64,000 nt of DNA from a virus (IMGVR_UViG_3300031998_000009:64001-128000); one strand, 5' to 3'; shown: positions 13,950 through 64,000, counted from the stretch's first letter. The notes: generated by a model not told the origin, from the letters alone. Translations and numbers: made by a program.

Positions 13950-16379
13950 TTATTTATTTTCGTTTAAGAACTTTCTTATATTAGAAACATTTTGAATTTT
14001 TTTAGGTTGACCTTGTTCAAATACAATAAGGGTTGGTGCTGATGTTATTTCATACATTTTTACAAGATCCTGATTTTCTTCGGCTAATAGTACTTCACAA
14101 TCAAATCCTGCTTCTGAAATGAACTTCTTTGCCATTTTGCAATTCGGACAGGTTGCTGTGGTAAACAACATTGGTTTTCTAGTTCCGGCTAGAATTGTTC
14201 TTACAGTTTCTTCGATGTTTACATCTTTTTGCTCTTGTTCTGGTAGTTCTGTATAGTCTGTTTTACAAGATTCACATTCTTCTGTATTATTAGATAGTTC
14301 ATCTACATTCACCTTATATTCTTTTCTGTCCTTAAATTCGTGGGCCTTTCCATCGTTAAAGTTTTGAACAGCTCTATAATAACCTGTTACTCTACTATAT
14401 ACTTCTGTTGCTTTTCCACATATAGGACAGGTCCATTCTTCTCCCTTAATATATCCATGTTCTGGACAGATAGAATAAGTAGGTGAAAATGTAAAATAAG
14501 GTAGTTTATAGTTTTCTGCTATCTTTCTTGTAAGATTCATAGCAGATTGCCAATCTGGTAATTTTTCACCTAGAAAAGCATGGAATACAGTTCCAGAGGT
14601 ATATTTAGTTTGTAGATCATCTTGGTGATCTAGTGCTTCGAATATATCATCTGTATAACCTACTGGAAGATGAGAACTATTTGTATAATACGGAGACCCA
14701 TCTGTTTTATCTCCTGCTGTTATAATATTTGGATAATCTTCTTTATCGTGTTTTGCAAATCTGTATGTAACACCTTCGGCAGGTGTAGCTTCAAGATTAT
14801 ACAGATCTCCATACTGTTCTTGATAATCCGAAAGTTTATTTCTCATAAAATCAAGAACCTTTGTTGTGAATGTATATCCTTCTTTTGTAGAAATATCTTT
14901 TGCTACCCATTTAGCATTCAAACAACACTCGTTCATACCTACTAGACCAATAGTAGAAAAATGATCATTAAAGGAACCTAGATATCTCTTTGTATATGGA
15001 TATAGTCCTTGTTCAAGATATTGTGTAATAACATTTCTTTTTATTTTAAGACTTCTTGCTGATATGTCCATCAATCTAACTAATTTAGTGAAAAACTCTT
15101 CTTCTGTTGTCGATGTATAAGCTAGTCTTGGCATATTTATAGTAACAACACCTATTGAACCTGTATTGTCACCACTACCAAAGAACCCACCTGATTTACG
15201 TCTTAACTCACGAAGATCTAGACGTAACCGACAGCACATAGCCCTTACCGAATCTGGTTGCATATCACTATTAATATAATTGCTAAAATAAGGTGTTCCG
15301 TATTTAGCAGTCATTTCAAATAAAAGTTTATTATTAGTAGATTCCGGATCCCAATCAAATTCTTTGGTTATAGAATAAGTAGGAATTGGATAAGAAAAAC
15401 ATCTTCCATCTGCATCTCCTTCTATCATAGTTTCGAGAAATGCTTTATTAATCATATCCATTTCACGTTTACAATCTTTATATTTGAAATCTACTTCTTC
15501 TCCACCCACAATGCAATTAAGTTCGGCAAGGTCATCCGGAACAGTCCAGTCCAAAGTAAAATTTGAGAACACAGGTTGACTTCCCCATCTAGAGGATGTG
15601 TTAAGATGATATATTAGAGATTGTATACATTGTTTTACTTCTTTATAGGAAAGGTCCTCATATTTGACAAAAGGAGCTAAAAGTGTATCTACACTATTGA
15701 ACGCCTGAGCCCCGGACCATTCGTTTTGAAGGCAACCAAGATAATTTACCATCTGATTACAAAGAGTAGAGAGATGTTTAGCAGGTTTAGACGCTATCTT
15801 TTTCGGGACTCCTCCAAAACCTTCCTTTATCAATGTCTTGAGGGACCATCCAGCACAGTATCCAGATAACATTGATAAATCGTGTAGATGAATGTCACAA
15901 TTTTTATGAGCTGTCGAAACCTCTTCGTCGTATATCTCTGATAGCCAATAATTAGCTGTGATGGCACCGGAATTACCAAGAATAAGTCCTCCAAGGGAAT
16001 AGTTGATACTTGAATTTTCTTTGACTCTCCAGTCTGTTGCTTGAGTATATCCTTCAATGGTCTTTTTATAGTCAAGCATTGTCTCTTTCGCTTTTCTAGC
16101 ATTCTCGTGTTGTTTTCTATATAGAATATAAGATTTAGCTACATCATCGTAACCGAATGTCATTAATGTTTTTTCTACTGCATTTTGAATATCTTCTACG
16201 GATAGAAGACCGTCTTTAATTGTTTTTTCTGCTTCTGCCATAGATCTTATTGTTATTAGTTCTATAATAGAATCCTGATATTCTCTATTACAGGATTTAA
16301 ATGATTTTACAATTCCTTCTGATATTTTTGATGTAGTGAATACATCAATATCTCCACTTCTCTTTTTTACTTTATACAT
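13950..16379 (-). CDS. nrdD: class III anaerobic ribonucleoside-triphosphate reductase with ATP-cone and C-terminal glutaredoxin-like domain
   Basis: ATP-cone VKKRSG, AMCCRL, TPAEG, glycyl-radical motif RVTGYY, C-terminal TCPNCK. Confidence 0.95.
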   Translation of the reverse strand: MYKVKKRSGDIDVFTTSKISEGIVKSFKSCNREYQDSIIELITIRSMAEAEKTIKDGLLSVEDIQNAVEKTLMTFGYDDVAKSYILYRKQHENARKAKETMLDYKKTIEGYTQATDWRVKENSSINYSLGGLILGNSGAITANYWLSEIYDEEVSTAHKNCDIHLHDLSMLSGYCAGWSLKTLIKEGFGGVPKKIASKPAKHLSTLCNQMVNYLGCLQNEWSGAQAFNSVDTLLAPFVKYEDLSYKEVKQCIQSLIYHLNTSSRWGSQPVFSNFTLDWTVPDDLAELNCIVGGEEVDFKYKDCKREMDMINKAFLETMIEGDADGRCFSYPIPTYSITKEFDWDPESTNNKLLFEMTAKYGTPYFSNYINSDMQPDSVRAMCCRLRLDLRELRRKSGGFFGSGDNTGSIGVVTINMPRLAYTSTTEEEFFTKLVRLMDISARSLKIKRNVITQYLEQGLYPYTKRYLGSFNDHFSTIGLVGMNECCLNAKWVAKDISTKEGYTFTTKVLDFMRNKLSDYQEQYGDLYNLEATPAEGVTYRFAKHDKEDYPNIITAGDKTDGSPYYTNSSHLPVGYTDDIFEALDHQDDLQTKYTSGTVFHAFLGEKLPDWQSAMNLTRKIAENYKLPYFTFSPTYSICPEHGYIKGEEWTCPICGKATEVYSRVTGYYRAVQNFNDGKAHEFKDRKEYKVNVDELSNNTEECESCKTDYTELPEQEQKDVNIEETVRTILAGTRKPMLFTTATCPNCKMAKKFISEAGFDCEVLLAEENQDLVKMYEITSAPTLIVFEQGQPKKIQNVSNIRKFLNENK

Positions 16380-27690: not shown

Positions 27691-28017
27691 TCAATGTTGA
27701 TTATCATTTTTTAACTCCTTTTTTAGCTCCTTTTCCAATTTCTGAACTAACGGTTCATAATGTGTTCGGTTCACATCCATATCGTCTATTGTTATTCCGT
27801 CTGGATTTCTCCACTCGTAAATATTTAACATGGATGCGAATGTTATTTCTTTAGTTACTTTTTCAAAACCATGTTTCTTTAACCATTTATGTTTTTTATG
27901 GTCTTCCCACTTATCAAGGATGTAAGCTAATATTAAAAGTATCCCTATAGTCCCAAAAAACAATAATGGTATTAAATAATCAAATATATATTTTACTGTG
28001 AAATATTTTTCAATCAT
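27691..28017 (-). CDS. membrane-anchored hypothetical protein
   Basis: N-terminal TM segment. Confidence 0.55.
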   Translation of the reverse strand: MIEKYFTVKYIFDYLIPLLFFGTIGILLILAYILDKWEDHKKHKWLKKHGFEKVTKEITFASMLNIYEWRNPDGITIDDMDVNRTHYEPLVQKLEKELKKELKNDNQH

Positions 28018-28438
28018 AATTATCAATCCTCTCAAAAGTAAATGTTCCATTATTGTTTGTATAATATACTTTGTTTATACCAAAATCTTTTATTGCAGAC
28101 ATACAAACAGGACAAGGTCTAGCTAATCTAAACTCTCCATTCTTCTTTTTAGATATGATAACAAGTTCTATTTTATCCCAATTAGTTATTGACCCATCTA
28201 CTCTTCTTAAACAGTTTATCTCGGAATGTTCCTTGTCTACAAAATTCTCAATACTCTTTAAAGGAGTCCTTACTCTGTAAAAATTCTGAAGTGGTGATGT
28301 CTTATCAGAATTTATACCAAAACTAATAACTTTTCCTTTATATACCAGAAAAGAAACTGTTTTTACTCTTTTATATGGTTTATCAGTATATGTGTAATCA
28401 TACATTCTGGAAAGTGTATTAAGAAGTTTGTTTTTCAT
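28010..28438 (-). CDS. cytidine/dCMP deaminase-family Zn protein
   Basis: HSEINCL...ARPCPVC..GINKVYY. Confidence 0.8.
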   Translation of the reverse strand: MKNKLLNTLSRMYDYTYTDKPYKRVKTVSFLVYKGKVISFGINSDKTSPLQNFYRVRTPLKSIENFVDKEHSEINCLRRVDGSITNWDKIELVIISKKKNGEFRLARPCPVCMSAIKDFGINKVYYTNNNGTFTFERIDNYD

Positions 28439-56708: not shown

Positions 56709-57797
56709 TTATGACTCCATTCTTGGGTCATCCAATAGTGAAATAATCTGAATTACATTATCCTCTTCAATACGGAATGTAGAAGGTTCACCGTAATAAA
56801 GATGTACAGTTTCACCAACTCTAGCATTGAGCTGCTTCTTCAAGGATTCCACACCTACAAAACAGGTGAAGTCTTTGAAGTTGTTACTACCCTGATACGG
56901 TACCGTTTCAATACCGTCATCATGTGCAGACTCTACCTTAACACCTGCTTGAGTAAATGTCATGTACAATCCATTCTGATCATTATCACTAATAAACAGA
57001 GACAATCTATCAATAATATTAAGAAGAGCTGTTTTTGGAAGTATGCAATCAGAACCGTATTCTCTTTCCAAAATAGCATCGATAGTTGATACCGGATATT
57101 CTTCAATACCTTCTGGAAGTACAGCAAACAGTTTCATCTTCTCGGTCTTAAACAAAATATTATTCTGATAAATCTTATATGTAATGTCTTCTTCAGATGT
57201 CATACTTAAAAGTTCGAATACATTCGGTGGAATGAGTATGTCCTTATCAAATGTAGGTAACTGTGTAATACAAATATTAAATGTATCAGCAGAAATAACT
57301 CTGTTCTTCAAACACAGATAATTTACCAGGTATGGTGCCTCCAATGTTAGTGCCAAAGAGGGCTTATTATGAAGAATAAGTGTTTTAATAACAGATGTTT
57401 TGATAGTTCCACTGTATTCAGGATTATTGATCTCGTGTACTGGATACTTAATAGGTGTACCATCTACATCAAGCTGAATTGGAATCTTATAAGTACCATT
57501 ACCTGTAACAGAAATAAAACTATCTGTAACATCAATCTTGATATTCTCTACACTTGTTTTCATAATCAGTTTAGAGAATGTATCTACATTAACTGTAAAT
57601 GTTACAGGATCTCCATTAAGAATTTTGTCAGTTACAGTAAAATAGTTATTAGAATCTGTTGTTGTAATAGAGAAGTTACCACTGTCTACAACAAAATTCA
57701 TCAAACTTGTAATAGCACTGAATTTACTGTTTCCGGCACCTTTAATTGCCTTATTAATAGCTGTTTGAAGTACCTGAGTATTAATAGTAAACGCCAT
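56709..57797 (-). CDS. dnaN: DNA polymerase III beta-like sliding clamp
   Basis: 362 aa; three repeated beta-clamp-like segments (TTDSN, SADTF, EEYP); synteny with dnaX/holA/holB. Confidence 0.72.
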   Translation of the reverse strand: MAFTINTQVLQTAINKAIKGAGNSKFSAITSLMNFVVDSGNFSITTTDSNNYFTVTDKILNGDPVTFTVNVDTFSKLIMKTSVENIKIDVTDSFISVTGNGTYKIPIQLDVDGTPIKYPVHEINNPEYSGTIKTSVIKTLILHNKPSLALTLEAPYLVNYLCLKNRVISADTFNICITQLPTFDKDILIPPNVFELLSMTSEEDITYKIYQNNILFKTEKMKLFAVLPEGIEEYPVSTIDAILEREYGSDCILPKTALLNIIDRLSLFISDNDQNGLYMTFTQAGVKVESAHDDGIETVPYQGSNNFKDFTCFVGVESLKKQLNARVGETVHLYYGEPSTFRIEEDNVIQIISLLDDPRMES

Positions 57798-57812: not shown

Positions 57813-58397
57813 TTAATGTTTTGTTGTGATATTTGAATAAAGTTCCTGTCTCAATGAGGCATTAGCACGGAACTCACCACCTAAAGCACAGGTCCTAGTA
57901 ATACTAGGTTTCTTAATACCTCTTGCCGACATACAACTGTGTCTGCCCTGAATGATAACAGCGACACTATCCGTATTAAGAATTTTTTGAAGTATCTCCA
58001 TGATGTCACTTCCAATACGTTCCTGAAGCTGTAAACGCTTACCTACCATATCTGCGATTCTGGCAATCTTGGAAAGTCCAATAACTCTACCATTCGGAAT
58101 GTATGCCACAGATACAGTCATATCAAACATAAGTGCAATATGATGTTCGCAGTAGCTATAAATAGGAATTTCGTCTACAATTACAAGGTCTCCCATTGTA
58201 GTGTCCTCGAAACACTTATCAAACATTGTAGCGATTTCGTCATTGGTATAGCACATACCTTCGAATACTTCTTCGTACATCTTTGCTACTCGTTTAGGAG
58301 TATCTAAAAGTCCTTCTCTATCCGGATTGTCTCCGAGAGCAATAAGAATATTACGAATGGACTGCTCAATAAGTTCTTTATTGATCTTTTTAGACAT
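57813..58397 (-). CDS. folE: GTP cyclohydrolase I
   Basis: [34 protein letters not shown]. Confidence 0.96.
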
Positions 58398-58758
58398 TCT
58401 CGCACACTTCCTTCTTATCCTTTTTAAGATTTATTGGATTAAGGTCAATGTTTAATAATTGTGCTCTTAATTCCAATAAGTACAGATATCTTGTCATAGC
58501 TTCTTCCTGGTCTCGCATAATCTGATTTAAGGTATATTTTTCACTTCTACGTTTTTCATCGTCTTTAGTGTAACAGATTTCGTTACTATAACCTCTATCC
58601 ATCACACGGCATTCTGCTTCTTCTCTAACATTACTAACATGAAGTTTATTCAGTCTAATTCTTGTCTGCCAATATTCAGCAAGAAATCTATCTCTAAAAT
58701 CATCAGAAACAGAGGCTTGAATAGTATCTCCCATCATAACTTCAACAATATCTAACAT
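58390..58758 (-). CDS. crAss001_48-like helical protein
   Basis: AEYWQ..IRL.KL...Q..AM..YL..LE.RA. Confidence 0.6.
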
Positions 58759-58759
58759 A

Positions 58760-59458
58760 TTAAACTCCTCTCGCATTAAAATCCCAGATATACTTGTGAA
58801 TTTGTAATTGCATACGAACATCGAACAGATCATTTTGAATTATATATTCTACAATTTGTTTAGGTTCGATCATACCAAAAATAGGACTTACAAAAATATG
58901 CGGCATATCTGAATAACTATTTTTAATAGTAGTTATCCATCTTTTCATATCCTCTAAGTCCTCTTTTGTACCTACCACAAACTTTACAACATCCCAATCA
59001 TTAAGATTTTTTGTAAAGTTTTCAGGAATCATTTTATTGTTTTCACCGCTAGAAATAGATTTATAGTCAATAGTAAAGATTAATCTTTCATGAGAGTATG
59101 ACGATAAAGATGTAAGTAATCTTTTCTTAAATGGTTGAATGTCAACAGCGCCGCAGGTTTCTACATTTACTTCAAAACCTTCCTCCAGTAATGCTTCAAT
59201 GAGCTCGGCAGAATCTTTTTGAATAAGAGGTTCTCCACCTGTGAAAGTCACATAGGGTGTTTTATTGGATTTACAATATTCTACAATTTCTTCTACTGTC
59301 ATGTCTTTAGGTTCAGCACCGTGTCCGACTTCATTTGCGTAAATACTATCACAGTAGTTGCAGCACAAAATACAACCGAAACTTCGTATAAAAGTAACAA
59401 TTTTTCCTGTTCTAATACCTTCACCGTCAATAGATTTAAACAACTCAACTATTTTCAT
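58760..59458 (-). CDS. queE: 7-carboxy-7-deazaguanine synthase (radical SAM)
   Basis: F.SIDGEG, CxxxCxxCD, TGGEPL, LQIHK. Confidence 0.93.
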   Translation of the reverse strand: MKIVELFKSIDGEGIRTGKIVTFIRSFGCILCCNYCDSIYANEVGHGAEPKDMTVEEIVEYCKSNKTPYVTFTGGEPLIQKDSAELIEALLEEGFEVNVETCGAVDIQPFKKRLLTSLSSYSHERLIFTIDYKSISSGENNKMIPENFTKNLNDWDVVKFVVGTKEDLEDMKRWITTIKNSYSDMPHIFVSPIFGMIEPKQIVEYIIQNDLFDVRMQLQIHKYIWDFNARGV

Positions 59459-59461
59459 AGT

Positions 59462-59920
59462 TTAACCTCTTTTCCAGGTGGCATGAGAATTAGTGGTTTC
59501 CCACAAATCAATTTTATCTACTGTACATTCCAAATTAGGAAAGTTGTTATTTAATAAGGATTGGATGTCATTAGCAAATGCCTTTACCATATTCTCGGCA
59601 GATGGACTATTCTCCATCTTGAAAATACGCATATTAGCTTGTTCTAGAACCTCTCTAATCTTGCCCTCTGTAGTCTCCGGACCATTACTCATATTGGTAA
59701 TGAAGGAATGATCTGGTACATAATCTTTCAGGATTTTATTTAACACACTGAAATCCACGACAAAATTAAATTTGTTTGACATTCTATCATATTCTGGACA
59801 ACTGATTGTAACTTCCAGTTTATATGAGTGTCCATGTAGGTTACCACAGAGTCCTTCGTAACCATAAAGAAGATGTGCTGCCTCAAACTCTACATGACGA
59901 GTAACACTGATACGATCCAA
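59462..59920 (-). CDS. queD: 6-carboxytetrahydropterin synthase
   Basis: FEAAH, C.NLHGHSY, SAEN, WET. Confidence 0.93.
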   Translation of the reverse strand: MDRISVTRHVEFEAAHLLYGYEGLCGNLHGHSYKLEVTISCPEYDRMSNKFNFVVDFSVLNKILKDYVPDHSFITNMSNGPETTEGKIREVLEQANMRIFKMENSPSAENMVKAFANDIQSLLNNNFPNLECTVDKIDLWETTNSHATWKRG

Positions 59921-59938
59921 ACTAAAAACCTCCTCTTT

Positions 59939-60418
59939 TTAATAAATTGTTCCTTTATTTTCTGAATAATTTTTATATAATTCTTGAGCTAGATCTCTGT
60001 CCCTAAACTCGAATTCTAGTTCATTTGTATTGTAACACATTTTTGAAAGATTGTCAATAGTCTCATAAATATGTTTATCTTTAAACCCAATATGTTCGGC
60101 ATCTTCTAACGTACCAGAAATATAAACTTTCTTTATATTTGCCCACATTATAGCACCTAAACACATTGGACAAGGATAACCTGTTGCATATAATTCACAA
60201 TCAGATAAATCATGTGTTTGTAGTTTTTGACACGCTTTTCTTATAGCGTTTATCTCGGCATGAGCTGTAGGATCTTTAGTACCTAGTACTGTATTAGATT
60301 CACAGCTTATAAGTTTTCCATCTCTTACAACACTTGCCCCGAAAGGTCCACCTAAACCTAAATTAGAATTAGTATATGCTATATCTACAGCTTGCAGCAT
60401 AAAGGTTTTATTATACAT
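59939..60418 (-). CDS. guaD: guanine deaminase (cytidine-deaminase fold, GuaD type)
   Basis: GGPFGA, DPTAHAEINAIR, PCPMCLGAI.WA, GF.D..IY. Confidence 0.85.
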   Translation of the reverse strand: MYNKTFMLQAVDIAYTNSNLGLGGPFGASVVRDGKLISCESNTVLGTKDPTAHAEINAIRKACQKLQTHDLSDCELYATGYPCPMCLGAIMWANIKKVYISGTLEDAEHIGFKDKHIYETIDNLSKMCYNTNELEFEFRDRDLAQELYKNYSENKGTIY

Positions 60419-60430
60419 AGAATAATCACC

Positions 60431-60811
60431 TTATTCCCATGGAAATTTAATCCAGAGATTACCTTTTTCCATATTCCAATAATCTGGAGTTACTTTTGCA
60501 TCCTTCTTATAGAACATAGTAGCAATATAGTATCCTTTATCTTTCCAAGCAAGTGCTGTATTACCTGTATCACAGATATCATCTACAATAAGGCATCCAG
60601 GTTGTGGGGCACCTAGAAATGGAAGATTAAGTTTATGTGAAAGCATTACGGCAAACACCAAACCACCTCTAGCAGGTCCGTATACACCTGTGAATGACCT
60701 ACCCTGTGTCTGAATAACACTTGTTAAACAATATATGAACTCATTTACTTGATCCCATGTTACATAGTATACTTCTGGGGTCATATCTTTTTTATCCCTA
60801 TCATTTAGCAT
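60431..60811 (-). CDS. type I purine phosphoribosyltransferase (Gpt-like)
   Basis: G.ARGG, LIVDDICDTG.T, WIKFPWE. Confidence 0.88.
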   Translation of the reverse strand: MLNDRDKKDMTPEVYYVTWDQVNEFIYCLTSVIQTQGRSFTGVYGPARGGLVFAVMLSHKLNLPFLGAPQPGCLIVDDICDTGNTALAWKDKGYYIATMFYKKDAKVTPDYWNMEKGNLWIKFPWE

Positions 60812-62057
60812 AATCTTTTTCCTTATCCTTAAAATCTAAACGCTCTTCATACTCAATAGGATCCACCAAACCGTTTCTAAAGAACGCTTTCTGTCTCATA
60901 AAACAAGGACCACAATGCCCACAGGCTTTATCCCCATTTCTGTAACAAGACCACGTATATTCAAAAGGTGCCTTATATTTAAGACCAAAGGGAATAATTT
61001 CATGCTTCATTAAGTTACCCACAGGAGTTCTAATCTCCACATACTTTCCATTTTGAACAGCTCCATACAAACAACTATTAAAATCCTTAATAAACTGTTC
61101 TTCATTATCAGGATATGCCCCAGACTCTTCTAAATTTGTCCCTAAATAAATGTAACTAAAATTATTTGCCTCCGCATAACCTACGGCCATTGACATCATA
61201 ATAAGGTTACGGGCAGGTACCCATTCATGGGCATATTCACTTCCAGAAACGCTCTCGGAAATGTTTTCCTTACCGTCCAAAATTGTACTTGCATGAGCCA
61301 TAAAATGTAAATCTAAATCCATTACATATAAAGAGCAATTACCATATGTGTGATTAAGAGATTCCTGAATCTTTTTAATTCGAATCAATTCGGGTGTCTC
61401 CGCTAGGCACCCATAATTATAATGCAATAAAGTCACTTTCTTATGTGTGGCACAAGCGTATGCTGCAACGGCGGTGCTATCTAAACCTGCTGAAGCAATA
61501 ACAATGGCGCTATCTTGAACATCCCTTTTTATACTTATAATCTCCCTTGTTTCAGAATCCATTATAGAATAAGGGGGAACTCTTTTAACATCCCCAATAG
61601 AAACCAAGTGATGTGCATAAGAACTAAAATAAAAATTACCATCCTTATCGTAAGAATAAAAAATGGGCTTATAATTACAGGCGAGGTAGAAATTTCCATC
61701 CGGTTTTAAAATTCCGATGGCATAGGCCCCTACCACCTTATACAAACTATCCCTTAGAGAATAAATATTTGTAAAGTCCAGAACTTTACTAAGTACATAA
61801 CTATCAATCATCCCATCTGGATTTCCTAATTCTCTATCATTACTAATAGTTCCATTATGAACTATTTTATAGTCCGTTCCGAAAGGTTGATTAAATTCGG
61901 CATTTTCAACCTCCGTCGTAGGAACTGCCCTATGGTTACAAATCCAGCTCCCTTTTCTATAAAAAACATTACTATAGTCTCTACCCCGATCTAAGGACGT
62001 TTGAAATATAGAAAGAAATTTTTCATTCAGGGAGGTTCCACCACAAATCGTACACAT
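60801..62057 (-). CDS. gat-queC: Gat-QueC fusion (Ntn glutamine amidotransferase plus preQ0 synthase)
   Basis: N-terminal MC.I.G, HNG; QueC SAGLDS, VPARN, YPD, SCY..CGHCGPC. Confidence 0.92.
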   Translation of the reverse strand: MCTICGGTSLNEKFLSIFQTSLDRGRDYSNVFYRKGSWICNHRAVPTTEVENAEFNQPFGTDYKIVHNGTISNDRELGNPDGMIDSYVLSKVLDFTNIYSLRDSLYKVVGAYAIGILKPDGNFYLACNYKPIFYSYDKDGNFYFSSYAHHLVSIGDVKRVPPYSIMDSETREIISIKRDVQDSAIVIASAGLDSTAVAAYACATHKKVTLLHYNYGCLAETPELIRIKKIQESLNHTYGNCSLYVMDLDLHFMAHASTILDGKENISESVSGSEYAHEWVPARNLIMMSMAVGYAEANNFSYIYLGTNLEESGAYPDNEEQFIKDFNSCLYGAVQNGKYVEIRTPVGNLMKHEIIPFGLKYKAPFEYTWSCYRNGDKACGHCGPCFMRQKAFFRNGLVDPIEYEERLDFKDKEKDYAK

Positions 62058-62069
62058 AAAAATCTCCTT

Positions 62070-62954
62070 TCAGAATAAAGATTTTTTTAAACCTTTTAAT
62101 TTACGTTCATGGTTATTTGCAAATTGTTGAAGGTACATAATATTAACAAGACATCTTATTTTATAATCTTCCATACATTGTTGAACGGTAAAACCTAGAG
62201 ATTTTAAATAAATTTGAACCTGTTCCTGTTCATCCTTTTTCATATTAGCATAATTTTTTGCCAGATAATCTTGCTTCTCACTAATATTAATGACTCCCCA
62301 AGGTGACATTATACCCCCGTTAGCACTTGTCATAATCCACGCTGTGGAGTCCGCACTTTTAAAAGGATAAGACTTCAAAAGAGGTTTAGAAGTCATACCA
62401 AAAGCGTGAACTTTAATGTCGGGTCTCACTTTCTGTATAACTTTATAACAGGACTGAAAAAAATTATCTAAAATACTCTTTGTACTACCCACCAATCCTC
62501 CTAGCGCAATATAATCAATATCATCATCCTGTAGGTACTTATATAAATATTGAATATTGTCACCTTGGTGATATGTAGGAAGTAATTTATGCTTATCTTT
62601 ACAATGCTCCTTTAAATATAAATAGTTCTCATAACTTTTTTTATCTGAATCTGGAACACCACTACCACCAATAATATCTAAACTCGCAAATATATCAATG
62701 TACTCGATGATATTATTTATATATTGAATATAGTTATCTATATCGATAGTAACACCTTGAGTAAAAGCTGTGTAGGCACCGCAATCTATAAATAATTTAT
62801 TTTTAGCATTTTGGGTAGACTTTTTAAAGTCTACCCAGGATCTAATAATAGACTTGTCGCTGTAATAGGAAAGAAGTCTATTACAACCATTATTCATCAT
62901 ATAATCTTCGGCGAGTTTATTTTGGCTTCCGGCAAAATAAATATCAAATGCCAA
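62070..62954 (-). CDS. dpdA: DpdA, DNA 7-deazaguanine transglycosylase (TGT-like)
   Basis: FIDCGAY, LD.IG, P.YH.GD, ALGGLV, VHAFG, SADS..W; located in que cluster. Confidence 0.87.
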   Translation of the reverse strand: MAFDIYFAGSQNKLAEDYMMNNGCNRLLSYYSDKSIIRSWVDFKKSTQNAKNKLFIDCGAYTAFTQGVTIDIDNYIQYINNIIEYIDIFASLDIIGGSGVPDSDKKSYENYLYLKEHCKDKHKLLPTYHQGDNIQYLYKYLQDDDIDYIALGGLVGSTKSILDNFFQSCYKVIQKVRPDIKVHAFGMTSKPLLKSYPFKSADSTAWIMTSANGGIMSPWGVINISEKQDYLAKNYANMKKDEQEQVQIYLKSLGFTVQQCMEDYKIRCLVNIMYLQQFANNHERKLKGLKKSLF

Positions 62955-63018: not shown

Positions 63019-64000
63019 TTACAATGTATTCACATCAATTGATTCTCCGTACCAACTATAAAACAATTCAACATCACAAGTGAGTGGAACACAGAGATCA
63101 CGTCCTGCATTTATCATACATTGACTCATGAGTTCGGCACACCGTTTAGCATTTTCTACAGGACACTCTGCTATAATTTCATCATGTACGGGAATTAACA
63201 TTCTAAAACCTAGTTCTTTTAGCTCCTTATGGTTAAACAATTCTATTTGTGCTAACTTTGTCAAATCAGCACTCGAGCCTTGAACACGACTGTTTACAAC
63301 CTCTCGTTTAGCCTTAGCGATATGTCCAGTGTTATCTTTAATGTTAATACCGGATTGACGAATCTTTTCCTTTATAAGTTCACGTTCTTTATAATTACAT
63401 CTAAGAAGTCTATTAGTGAGACGTCTAACTTCTTCTTCTGGAACTTCTGTAGAGTAATTTGTCTCTTCATCTGAAAGTGGATCAAAATCAGGAGTCATAC
63501 CATTCTTATATGTGAACTCATAATATGGAAGTTGCATGGCAGGCAACTGTCGACGTCGTCCCCAAACAGTAGTAACATATCCGTATTCTCTTGCCATGTC
63601 CTCTGATTCTTCCAAGAACATAGCGAGACCTGGGAACTTTGCTAGAACCTTATCGTAAATTGCCTGTGCTTCTTTACGATTTTTATGAAGTTGTTCACCT
63701 ATAGATGCTATACCTCTTCCATAAAGAATGCCAAGAACAACTGGTTTTGCCGTAGCTCTTCTTTCTTTACCTTCTTTACTGTATGTTCCATCAGGTCGTT
63801 TCTCACAACATTCTTCATATGGAACATTAAAAATGATAGAAGCTATTTCAGAGTAAACATCCTTACCGTCCTTATAAGCCTGAATCATCTTTTCATCTTG
63901 ACTTAAATGAGCAGTAACACGAACTTCTTGTCCGGAATAGTCACAAGATAACATAATGTATCCTGGAGAGGCTGTAAACAACTGTCTTACATCATGTCCT
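63019..64000 (-). CDS. polA: family A DNA polymerase, C-terminal part (5' end beyond window)
   Basis: motif A DYSGQE.R, motif B R..AK....G..YG, motif C VHDE. Confidence 0.93.
   Translation of the reverse strand, partial: GHDVRQLFTASPGYIMLSCDYSGQEVRVTAHLSQDEKMIQAYKDGKDVYSEIASIIFNVPYEECCEKRPDGTYSKEGKERRATAKPVVLGILYGRGIASIGEQLHKNRKEAQAIYDKVLAKFPGLAMFLEESEDMAREYGYVTTVWGRRRQLPAMQLPYYEFTYKNGMTPDFDPLSDEETNYSTEVPEEEVRRLTNRLLRCNYKERELIKEKIRQSGINIKDNTGHIAKAKREVVNSRVQGSSADLTKLAQIELFNHKELKELGFRMLIPVHDEIIAECPVENAKRCAELMSQCMINAGRDLCVPLTCDVELFYSWYGESIDVNTL

Follow-up and report, generated by a model that had tools for sequence, protein, structure and literature searches.

Known 7-deazaguanine systems and the locus of this study

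Descriptions of phage 7-deazaguanine systems comprise five to seven genes, the last of which encodes DpdA, the DNA guanine transglycosylase. In phage 9g, which belongs to the Seuratvirus-Nonagvirus group with its archaeosine (dG+) and dPreQ0 system, Gat-QueC and DpdA place dG+ in DNA (PMC6884629). Flavobacterium phage immuto_2-6A has all of its G replaced by fdPreQ1 through DpdA3, and the main text of its description is silent on a phosphoribosyltransferase (PRT) (PMC10516641). The gene clusters for the antibiotics tubercidin and toyocamycin encode a PF00156 PRT (TubE/ToyH) together with FolE, QueD and QueE, a likeness drawn from their description (PMC6112128). Here we describe a 5.1-kb operon on the minus strand (positions 57,813 to 62,954) of the viral DNA IMGVR_UViG_3300031998_000009:64001-128000, a stretch of 64,000 nucleotides (the window) that corresponds to positions 64001-128000 of an IMG/VR virus record of 198.5 kb with a completeness estimate of 86%. 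The operon holds a known DpdA1-type phage 7-deazaguanine system, into which genes for a Bacillus-type guanine deaminase (GuaD) and a loop-less, Gpt-like purine PRT are inserted. We favor, with a probability of roughly 0.55, the reading that GuaD and PRT clear the guanine freed by DpdA and feed it back into the GTP used by FolE.

The locus has the same five core genes as the 9g group (FolE, QueD, QueE, Gat-QueC and DpdA), likewise beside replication genes, and its DpdA is nearest to DpdA1, with 39% identity to Bacillus phage Flasso and ~30-33% identity to the JenP1, Seurat and NP1-type proteins of the DpdA1 group (tblastn). In contrast to the 9g group, it is situated on a record of ~200 kb in an anaerobe-type setting, and the cluster contains in addition GuaD, the loop-less PRT and a small open reading frame (ORF). 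A homologous short PRT (44% identity) lies between queE and folE inside the deazaguanine cluster of immuto_2-6A, the only cultured lineage found with the short PRT; where the present cluster has Gat-QueC, that of immuto_2-6A has QueF and a formyltransferase, its transglycosylase is DpdA3 and not a DpdA1-like enzyme, and it lacks GuaD. The antibiotic clusters differ further, as they lack dpdA and their products are free nucleoside antibiotics (10.64898/2026.04.15.718813).

A literature search, with most subscription journals outside its coverage, returned no mention of a PRT or of a guanine deaminase in phage deazaguanine clusters, and in the literature covered both the fate of the displaced guanine and the supply of GTP are unaddressed. 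The original prediction placed GuaD and PRT outside the canonical pathway, which stands, and saw in the operon the best candidate for an undescribed pathway, which overstates the case: the core is known, and GuaD and PRT side by side are an accessory module of a known system.

Recurrence of PRT and GuaD in viral deazaguanine clusters

The recurrence of the PRT was surveyed in the best 80 of 339 IMG/VR loci with a relative, supplemented with loci found earlier, which together provided 72 distinct PRTs at 90% identity. The loci were annotated with hidden Markov models built from the loci themselves (E < 1e-6), by which divergent DpdAs may be missed, and the surveyed contigs are metagenomic and often fragments. 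At 62 of the 72 non-redundant viral loci, at least two of the genes for FolE, QueD, QueE, QueC or DpdA were found within 5 kb of the PRT, and among the loci having at least 3 kb of flanking sequence on both sides this was the case for 45 of 48. The immediate neighbor of the PRT is FolE in 38 of the 72 loci, QueC in nine and DpdA in none; the PRT follows FolE, the GTP-consuming first enzyme of the pathway. DpdA is present in every PRT genome that is complete enough to judge, and in the one complete genome inspected where it is not near the PRT it was found elsewhere in that genome.

Gene fusions connect the PRT with the same enzymes. PRT and FolE are fused in a single ORF on L040 and on the contigs L117 and L118 of a Planctomycetaceae bin (both domains confirmed by Pfam in L040 and L117), and two single-chain proteins (P0248 and P0365) consist of an N-terminal QueC and a short C-terminal PRT. 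The PRT-bearing clusters vary in their end chemistry, comprising clusters with Gat-QueC, with plain QueC, with QueF and a formyltransferase (QueF+DpdN) and without QueC, and the presence of the PRT in clusters with differing end products fits a common substrate such as guanine. In the phage isolate collection, of which 9g-like phages are part, tblastn matches to the PRT were restricted to Flavobacterium and Brevundimonas phages. Brevundimonas phage StAshley (L182:6637-8471) possesses adjacent genes for a deoxynucleoside monophosphate kinase, FolE and a full-length, hairpin-bearing PRT, located next to ribonucleotide reductase (RNR) genes; QueD, QueE and QueC were not annotated nearby.

Short PRTs fused to a domain of ~200 aa were also encountered amid T4-like structural genes (gp23, gp13, fibers) at L183:7001-8011 and L184:6476-7510. 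Their partner domain had no match in Pfam, PHROG or PDB, and these fusions, lying among structural genes and far from any deazaguanine gene, have no bearing on mechanism.

GuaD was surveyed by profile search in the best 80 of 183 viral loci, representing 50 distinct GuaDs at 90% identity. Within 8 kb of GuaD, at least one core deazaguanine gene is present in 31 of the 50 loci, DpdA in 26 and PRT in eight; core genes without PRT were found in 23 loci, DpdA without FolE, QueD and QueE in seven, and no nearby deazaguanine gene in 15, which include giant-virus bins. Two minimal modules, both Pfam-confirmed and both without FolE, QueD and QueE, are organized as DpdA-GuaD-(103 aa)-Vut_1 (L215:3360-5792) and as DpdA-DUF6884(DpdC-like)-GuaD-Vut_1/YhhQ-like transporter (L216:4638-7822). 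They look like salvage-fed systems, in which the deaza base is imported and GuaD is retained beside DpdA. Since GuaD stands here next to DpdA without the biosynthesis genes, it tracks base exchange and not synthesis. A GuaD situated 2.5 kb from queF-C-D-E-folE on a 161-kb contig (L180) was not counted as a GuaD cluster, because GuaD is followed by a gene other than a PRT and the contig is possibly of bacterial origin. A tblastn search of the phage isolate collection for a 9g-type GuaD gave no match.

GuaD adjoins PRT in seven of the eight loci holding both, a PRT being present in 8/50 GuaD loci and a GuaD in 8/72 PRT loci. The two are accessory genes independent of each other, not an obligate pair; in the window they stand side by side in one operon, and across the surveyed loci their partners differ, that of GuaD being DpdA and that of PRT being FolE. 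Their placement is far from chance, given that dozens of non-redundant viral loci show the same association, and the co-occurrence with deazaguanine clusters for which the original prediction had proposed a survey proved to be real for PRT (62/72) as well as for GuaD (31/50).

Sequence and structure of GuaD and PRT

In the structure search with GuaD, the B. subtilis guanine deaminase ranked best, followed by plant guanosine deaminase and, far lower, TadA; on the same ORF, the family models of TadA and dCMP deaminase also obtained far lower scores. GuaD has in common with B. subtilis GuaD/YknA (1WKQ, 1TIY) a similar length, the HAE and PCPMC zinc motifs (the latter of the PCxxC type), Asn42, Asp114 and the C-terminal Tyr. 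When 29 GuaD homologues from phages and bacteria are aligned, N42, H53, E55, C83, C86, D114 and, at the C-terminus, Y159 show no variation; we take these residues to have the recognition roles assigned to them in the 1WKQ paper, including the C-terminal Tyr, which would complete the site of the neighboring subunit. In contrast to the B. subtilis enzyme, the present GuaD is phage-encoded and lies beside DpdA and the deazaguanine genes. Its overall identity to housekeeping GuaD is 55-57%, with 57% to a Lachnospiraceae chromosomal GuaD located between infC-rpmI-rplT and the folate operon. Where GFRDD is found in most bacterial copies, the clade of the window's GuaD has GFKDK and retains D114; nothing in the sequence suggests an altered substrate. 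On a Lachnospiraceae contig (L179:5001-8523), the housekeeping GuaD adjoins the folate operon (folE, folP, folB/folK) and is therefore near GTP cyclohydrolase I; this bacterial proximity of GuaD and folE may be a coincidence.

The best family model for the PRT is that of xanthine-guanine PRT (XGPRT). Its AlphaFold (AF2) model, with a pLDDT of 93, has as best folds exclusively 6-oxopurine PRTs, namely 1vdm (P. horikoshii), 5bqo (the hypoxanthine-guanine-xanthine PRT (HGXPRT) of S. solfataricus), 4jls and 1a95 (XGPRT). Throughout the PRT family, the pyrophosphate (PPi) loop R48-G49-G50 and the motif D77-D78-I-x-D81-x-G83 for phosphoribosyl pyrophosphate (PRPP) are invariant or nearly so, and the stacking W120 hardly varies. 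The phage and long-form PRTs retain K102, a position occupied by His in many forms from the Candidate Phyla Radiation (CPR); based on structures of XGPRT and of hypoxanthine-guanine PRT (HGPRT), K102 is presumably the Lys that binds O6.

With Gpt/XGPRT of E. coli and Yersinia (1A95, 4JLS, 6KP5) and the archaeal 1VDM and 5BQO, the PRT has in common the fold, the PRPP motif, the PPi loop, the stacking Trp and the 6-oxo-binding Lys. Unlike those enzymes, it has no flexible catalytic loop II, a beta-hairpin of ~25 residues (Gpt ~57-82), residues 66-71 of the PRT spanning Gpt 56-83. This hairpin is missing in every phage member and in the short forms from CPR and DPANN genomes: a gap of ~25 residues appears in all phage PRTs when aligned with the long forms, and the hairpin is kept in the long forms of Campylobacterota and other bacteria. 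Because of its absence, the protein is by its sequence Gpt-like and not a canonical member of Gpt/XGPRT. More than 220 homologues were obtained at 90% clustering, nearly all of 124-137 aa, and a profile search of 1.84 billion representatives identified 128 clusters at E <= 1e-30, mostly of 112-150 aa. The same short PRT stands alone, without deazaguanine genes, in bins of CPR (Patescibacteria) and DPANN-type archaea (L102-L104, L107, L108, L111, L115, L116 and L131), where it would be an ordinary salvage enzyme. The phage form may have come from these cellular proteins, or they may represent a minimal purine PRT of the housekeeping kind.

A putative loop of guanine clearance and recycling

According to the reading that we favor, FolE, QueD, QueE and Gat-QueC would convert GTP into preQ0 or the G+ base, and the DpdA1-like transglycosylase, as judged from its validated homologues, would swap this deaza base for guanine in finished DNA. 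Each exchange would expel one free guanine, and each deaza base would cost one GTP. GuaD would deaminate the guanine to xanthine, which DpdA would be unable to use, and would in this way remove a competitor causing futile G-for-G exchange. The loop-less PRT would couple guanine and/or xanthine to PRPP, and the resulting GMP or XMP would be returned by the host enzymes GuaA, Gmk and Ndk to GTP, the substrate of FolE. GuaD and PRT would thus make up a clearance-and-recycling loop around DpdA whose parts are separable, many phages having only one of them. Such a pair of deaminase and PRT accounts for both placement patterns, that of GuaD with DpdA and that of PRT with FolE.

Free guanine is a substrate of DpdA, whose standard assay is the exchange of [14C]guanine (PMC10164549). 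Released guanine would therefore compete with the deaza base. In tRNA-guanine transglycosylases (TGTs), insertion of a 7-deaza base is effectively irreversible, and the inserted base is not known to be released again. The effect of guanine would therefore be to slow modification by futile exchange and not to reverse it, and the gain for the phage would be one of rate and precursor supply. Among the explanations offered originally, a sink and salvage of the released guanine is the best supported, given GuaD beside DpdA in L215 and L216 and PRT beside FolE, while its rationale of making the exchange one-way gives way to rate and supply. The genome contains 65,597 G per duplex copy; assuming 25-100% replacement and ~100 copies in a cell of 1 fL, we estimate millimolar levels both for the guanine set free and for the GTP required.

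Several observations weigh against this reading. The QueC-PRT fusions (P0248, P0365) fit a PRT acting on the product of QueC at least as well. A direct step from guanine to GMP makes the deaminase look redundant for recycling. A PRT subtype specific for xanthine was looked for and rejected, no PRT residue separating the clusters with GuaD from those without. The PRT has lost the closing hairpin of the known type I purine PRTs, so that its activity or substrate could differ. Finally, 9g, CAjan and most other cultured deazaguanine phages do without both GuaD and PRT (tblastn against isolates).

Alternative explanations

The alternative that survives best, raised for preQ0 in the original prediction, although we consider it rather unlikely, is that the PRT joins a 7-deazaguanine base, i.e. 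preQ0, 7-carboxy-7-deazaguanine (CDG) or G+, to PRPP, after which the nucleotide is reduced and incorporated by the polymerase or fulfills another role at the nucleotide level. It draws on the existence of the QueC-PRT fusions, on the precedent of TubE, a PF00156 PRT by which, in the making of tubercidin, CDG is joined to PRPP (PMC6112128; 10.64898/2026.04.15.718813), and on the class III RNR (NrdD) encoded by the phage. Loss of the hairpin could make room in the pocket for a 7-substituent, and the immuto cluster includes a nucleotide kinase (annotated as thymidylate kinase). Moreover, the DpdA3 of immuto could not be validated in E. coli, and the nucleoside of 7-amido-7-deazaguanine (ADG) was detected in cells infected with CP220 (PMC10516641). 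Opposed to this, DpdA accompanies the PRT wherever genome completeness allows judging, whereas the antibiotic clusters using a PRT lack dpdA; adjacency to FolE (38/72) far exceeds that to QueC (9/72); and one PRT family serves clusters with differing end products. CPR and DPANN genomes that have no deazaguanine genes contain this short form too, and the record yielded no guanylate kinase. The PRPP motif also retains its Asp; in HGPRT-type enzymes this residue acts on N7, the atom that is missing in 7-deaza bases. If true, a PRT acting on deaza bases would represent a pre-replicative, nucleotide-level route alongside DpdA and would challenge the published view of an exclusively post-replicative modification.

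That GuaD and PRT are general purine-supply genes of a large genome, placed in its replication module by chance and uncoupled from DpdA and FolE, is improbable. The 15 of 50 viral GuaD loci without a nearby deazaguanine gene, giant-virus bins among them, and the PRT domains joined to a domain of ~200 aa in the midst of T4-like structural genes are what such a role would lead one to expect. It is contradicted by the association across unrelated phage lineages and gene orders (45/48 well-flanked PRT loci and 31/50 GuaD loci), by the fusion of PRT to FolE and to QueC, and by the minimal modules of DpdA, GuaD and a transporter.

Least of all do we expect GuaD to deaminate a 7-deazaguanine, free or in DNA, to a base of the 7-deazaxanthine type, so far unobserved in DNA, as the original prediction had also offered: all pathway intermediates do have the 2-amino-4-oxo-pyrimidine ring of guanine, and GuaD lies inside or beside the deazaguanine cluster at 31 of 50 viral loci, but its active site is the same as that of housekeeping GuaD at 55-57% identity, it accompanies many end-product chemistries, and D93 of DpdA, which putatively reads the Watson-Crick edge and with it the 2-amino group, does not vary among the phages carrying GuaD. 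Even when these possibilities are taken jointly, so that either 7-deazaguanine bases are the substrates of the PRT, by itself or together with GuaD, or GuaD makes a 7-deazaxanthine-type base, we regard them as unlikely.

Core genes of the cluster

The features of the locus are listed in Table 1. For QueE, the TIGR03963 score of 237.5 bits is just below the cut-off of 260 and the Pfam match is above its cut-off; QueD is likewise above the Pfam cut-off and below that of the equivalog (68 vs 89). In Gat-QueC, the matches to GATase_6/7 are just under the Pfam cut-offs, and the N-terminus MCTICGG (Met-Cys, with Cys2) starts as class-II (Ntn) amidotransferases should; the protein retains the SAGLDS PP-loop and the four-Cys zinc motif C-x8-C-x2-C-x2-C. 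Since Gat-QueC and DpdA make dG+ in 9g, dG+ is the predicted DNA base of this phage.

Table 1. Features of the deazaguanine cluster and its flanking genes (positions in the window).
Feature	Position	Strand	Evidence and remarks
DnaN-like sliding clamp	56709..57797	-	TIGR00663, 8.7e-12; directly downstream of the cluster
FolE (GTP cyclohydrolase I)	57813..58397	-	PF01227, 2e-61; NF006826 223.5 bits, above 162 cut-off
crAss001_48-like small ORF	58390..58758	-	PF21825, 3.4e-8; start moved from 58833
QueE (radical-SAM 7-carboxy-7-deazaguanine synthase, clostridial type)	58760..59458	-	TIGR03963, 1.3e-70; PF04055
QueD (6-carboxytetrahydropterin synthase)	59462..59920	-	PF01242 (PTPS), 8e-23; TIGR03367, 7e-19; phrog_2389
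GuaD, cytidine deaminase (CDA)-fold guanine deaminase of the Bacillus type	59939..60418	-	PF00383, 1.4e-21; B. subtilis GuaD 1tiy/1wkq, 4e-35
Loop-less Gpt-like purine phosphoribosyltransferase, 126 aa	60431..60811	-	PF00156 29.6 bits; NF006613 (xanthine PRT), 1.4e-12
Gat-QueC (class-II glutamine amidotransferase + 7-cyano-7-deazaguanine synthase)	60801..62057	-	PF06508 (QueC) 5e-50; phrog_10428 7.5e-94
DpdA, DpdA1-like DNA guanine transglycosylase	62070..62954	-	phrog_887, 1.7e-50; annotated DpdA/TGT genes of isolates
Family A DNA polymerase, C-terminal part	63019..64000	-	PF00476, 1.7e-55; directly upstream of the cluster

DpdA had no match by sequence in Pfam, NCBIfam or PDB and was identified via PHROGs, tblastn and fold search. 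Its AF2 model (pLDDT 87.7) has a TIM-barrel fold of the TGT type, the top Foldseek matches (1iq8, 4gh3 and 7nq4, E ~1e-8) all being tRNA-guanine transglycosylases. The residues D57, D93, H129, H183 and D202 are shared with 18 relatives and recur in sequences of both the DpdA1-like and the DpdA3-like kind. In the DpdA of S. Montevideo, Asp95, Asp130, His181 and Asp256 provide the general acid/base, the reader of the base edge, and the nucleophilic Asp together with a His (PMC10164549); D57, D93 and D202 with a His are candidate counterparts of this catalytic set, with which their order and spacing are compatible. By homology to DpdA of the 9g/JenP1 type and by gene context, we infer that DpdA inserts 7-deazaguanine into DNA.

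For the small crAss001_48-like ORF, the most likely start is the ATG at 58758 and not 58833, because a GAGGAG ribosome-binding site precedes that ATG, just past the queE stop. No homologues of the ORF were found in any related locus examined, and in the closest relatives (L020/L185) queE abuts folE; it is probably a passenger and not a conserved member of the cluster.

Operon layout and genomic context

On the minus strand, the genes are arranged in the order PolA / DpdA, Gat-QueC, short PRT, GuaD, QueD, QueE, crAss001_48-like ORF, FolE / DnaN. The gene run and order reported originally were recovered in full, with all eight minus-strand ORFs in place and their family assignments upheld, as was the adjoining polymerase, whose ORF is directly upstream and in full (G000 127019-129367) extends past the end of the window. 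Spacing within the cluster ranges from an overlap of 11 nt, by which the start of the PRT overlaps the gat-queC stop, to a gap of 18 nt, and the gap between PolA and DpdA is 64 nt. A terminator scan of the run detected no terminator-like sites on the minus strand among the cluster genes. Further downstream are located a Cas4-like nuclease, RecA and a UvrD helicase; with the polymerase upstream and DnaN, the Cas4-like nuclease, RecA and UvrD downstream, the cluster is situated inside a replication module. The same frame of PolA and DnaN was found by synteny in the relatives L013, L020, L022 and L185-L253. At the DNA level, each phage isolate of the collection covers at most 8% of the 5.1-kb stretch, with short matches on folE and gat-queC.

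Genes of the GIY-YIG homing endonuclease type are found in relatives (L015:1-2819; L018:4504-5199), where they split the polymerase gene and are located within the deazaguanine cluster. In L014, QueE matches as two pieces ~600 nt apart, which suggests an insertion.

In the record, which is 86% complete, no QueF, DpdN or second copy of a core gene was found, nor a PRPP synthetase, a guanylate kinase, a class I or II RNR or a Vut_1 transporter. The only RNR recovered is the class III anaerobic enzyme NrdD (window 13950-16379, minus strand; PF13597, 2e-187), with a probable NrdG-like radical-SAM gene at G000 188403-189092; NrdD as the sole RNR class recovered points to an anaerobic host. A second CDA-fold deaminase of 142 aa (window 28010-28438, minus strand; PF00383, 25.5 bits) is unrelated to GuaD and is probably of the dCMP/cytidine type.

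Significance for phage DNA modification

The repeated recruitment of two helpers in diverse gene orders suggests that the by-product and the precursor supply limit the extent of DNA modification by 7-deazaguanine phages. If the loop of guanine clearance and recycling is true, it would help to explain the complete replacement of G in some phages and would offer a simple way to raise modification in engineered systems. It would also define a minimal, loop-less purine PRT that the phages have in common with CPR and DPANN cells.

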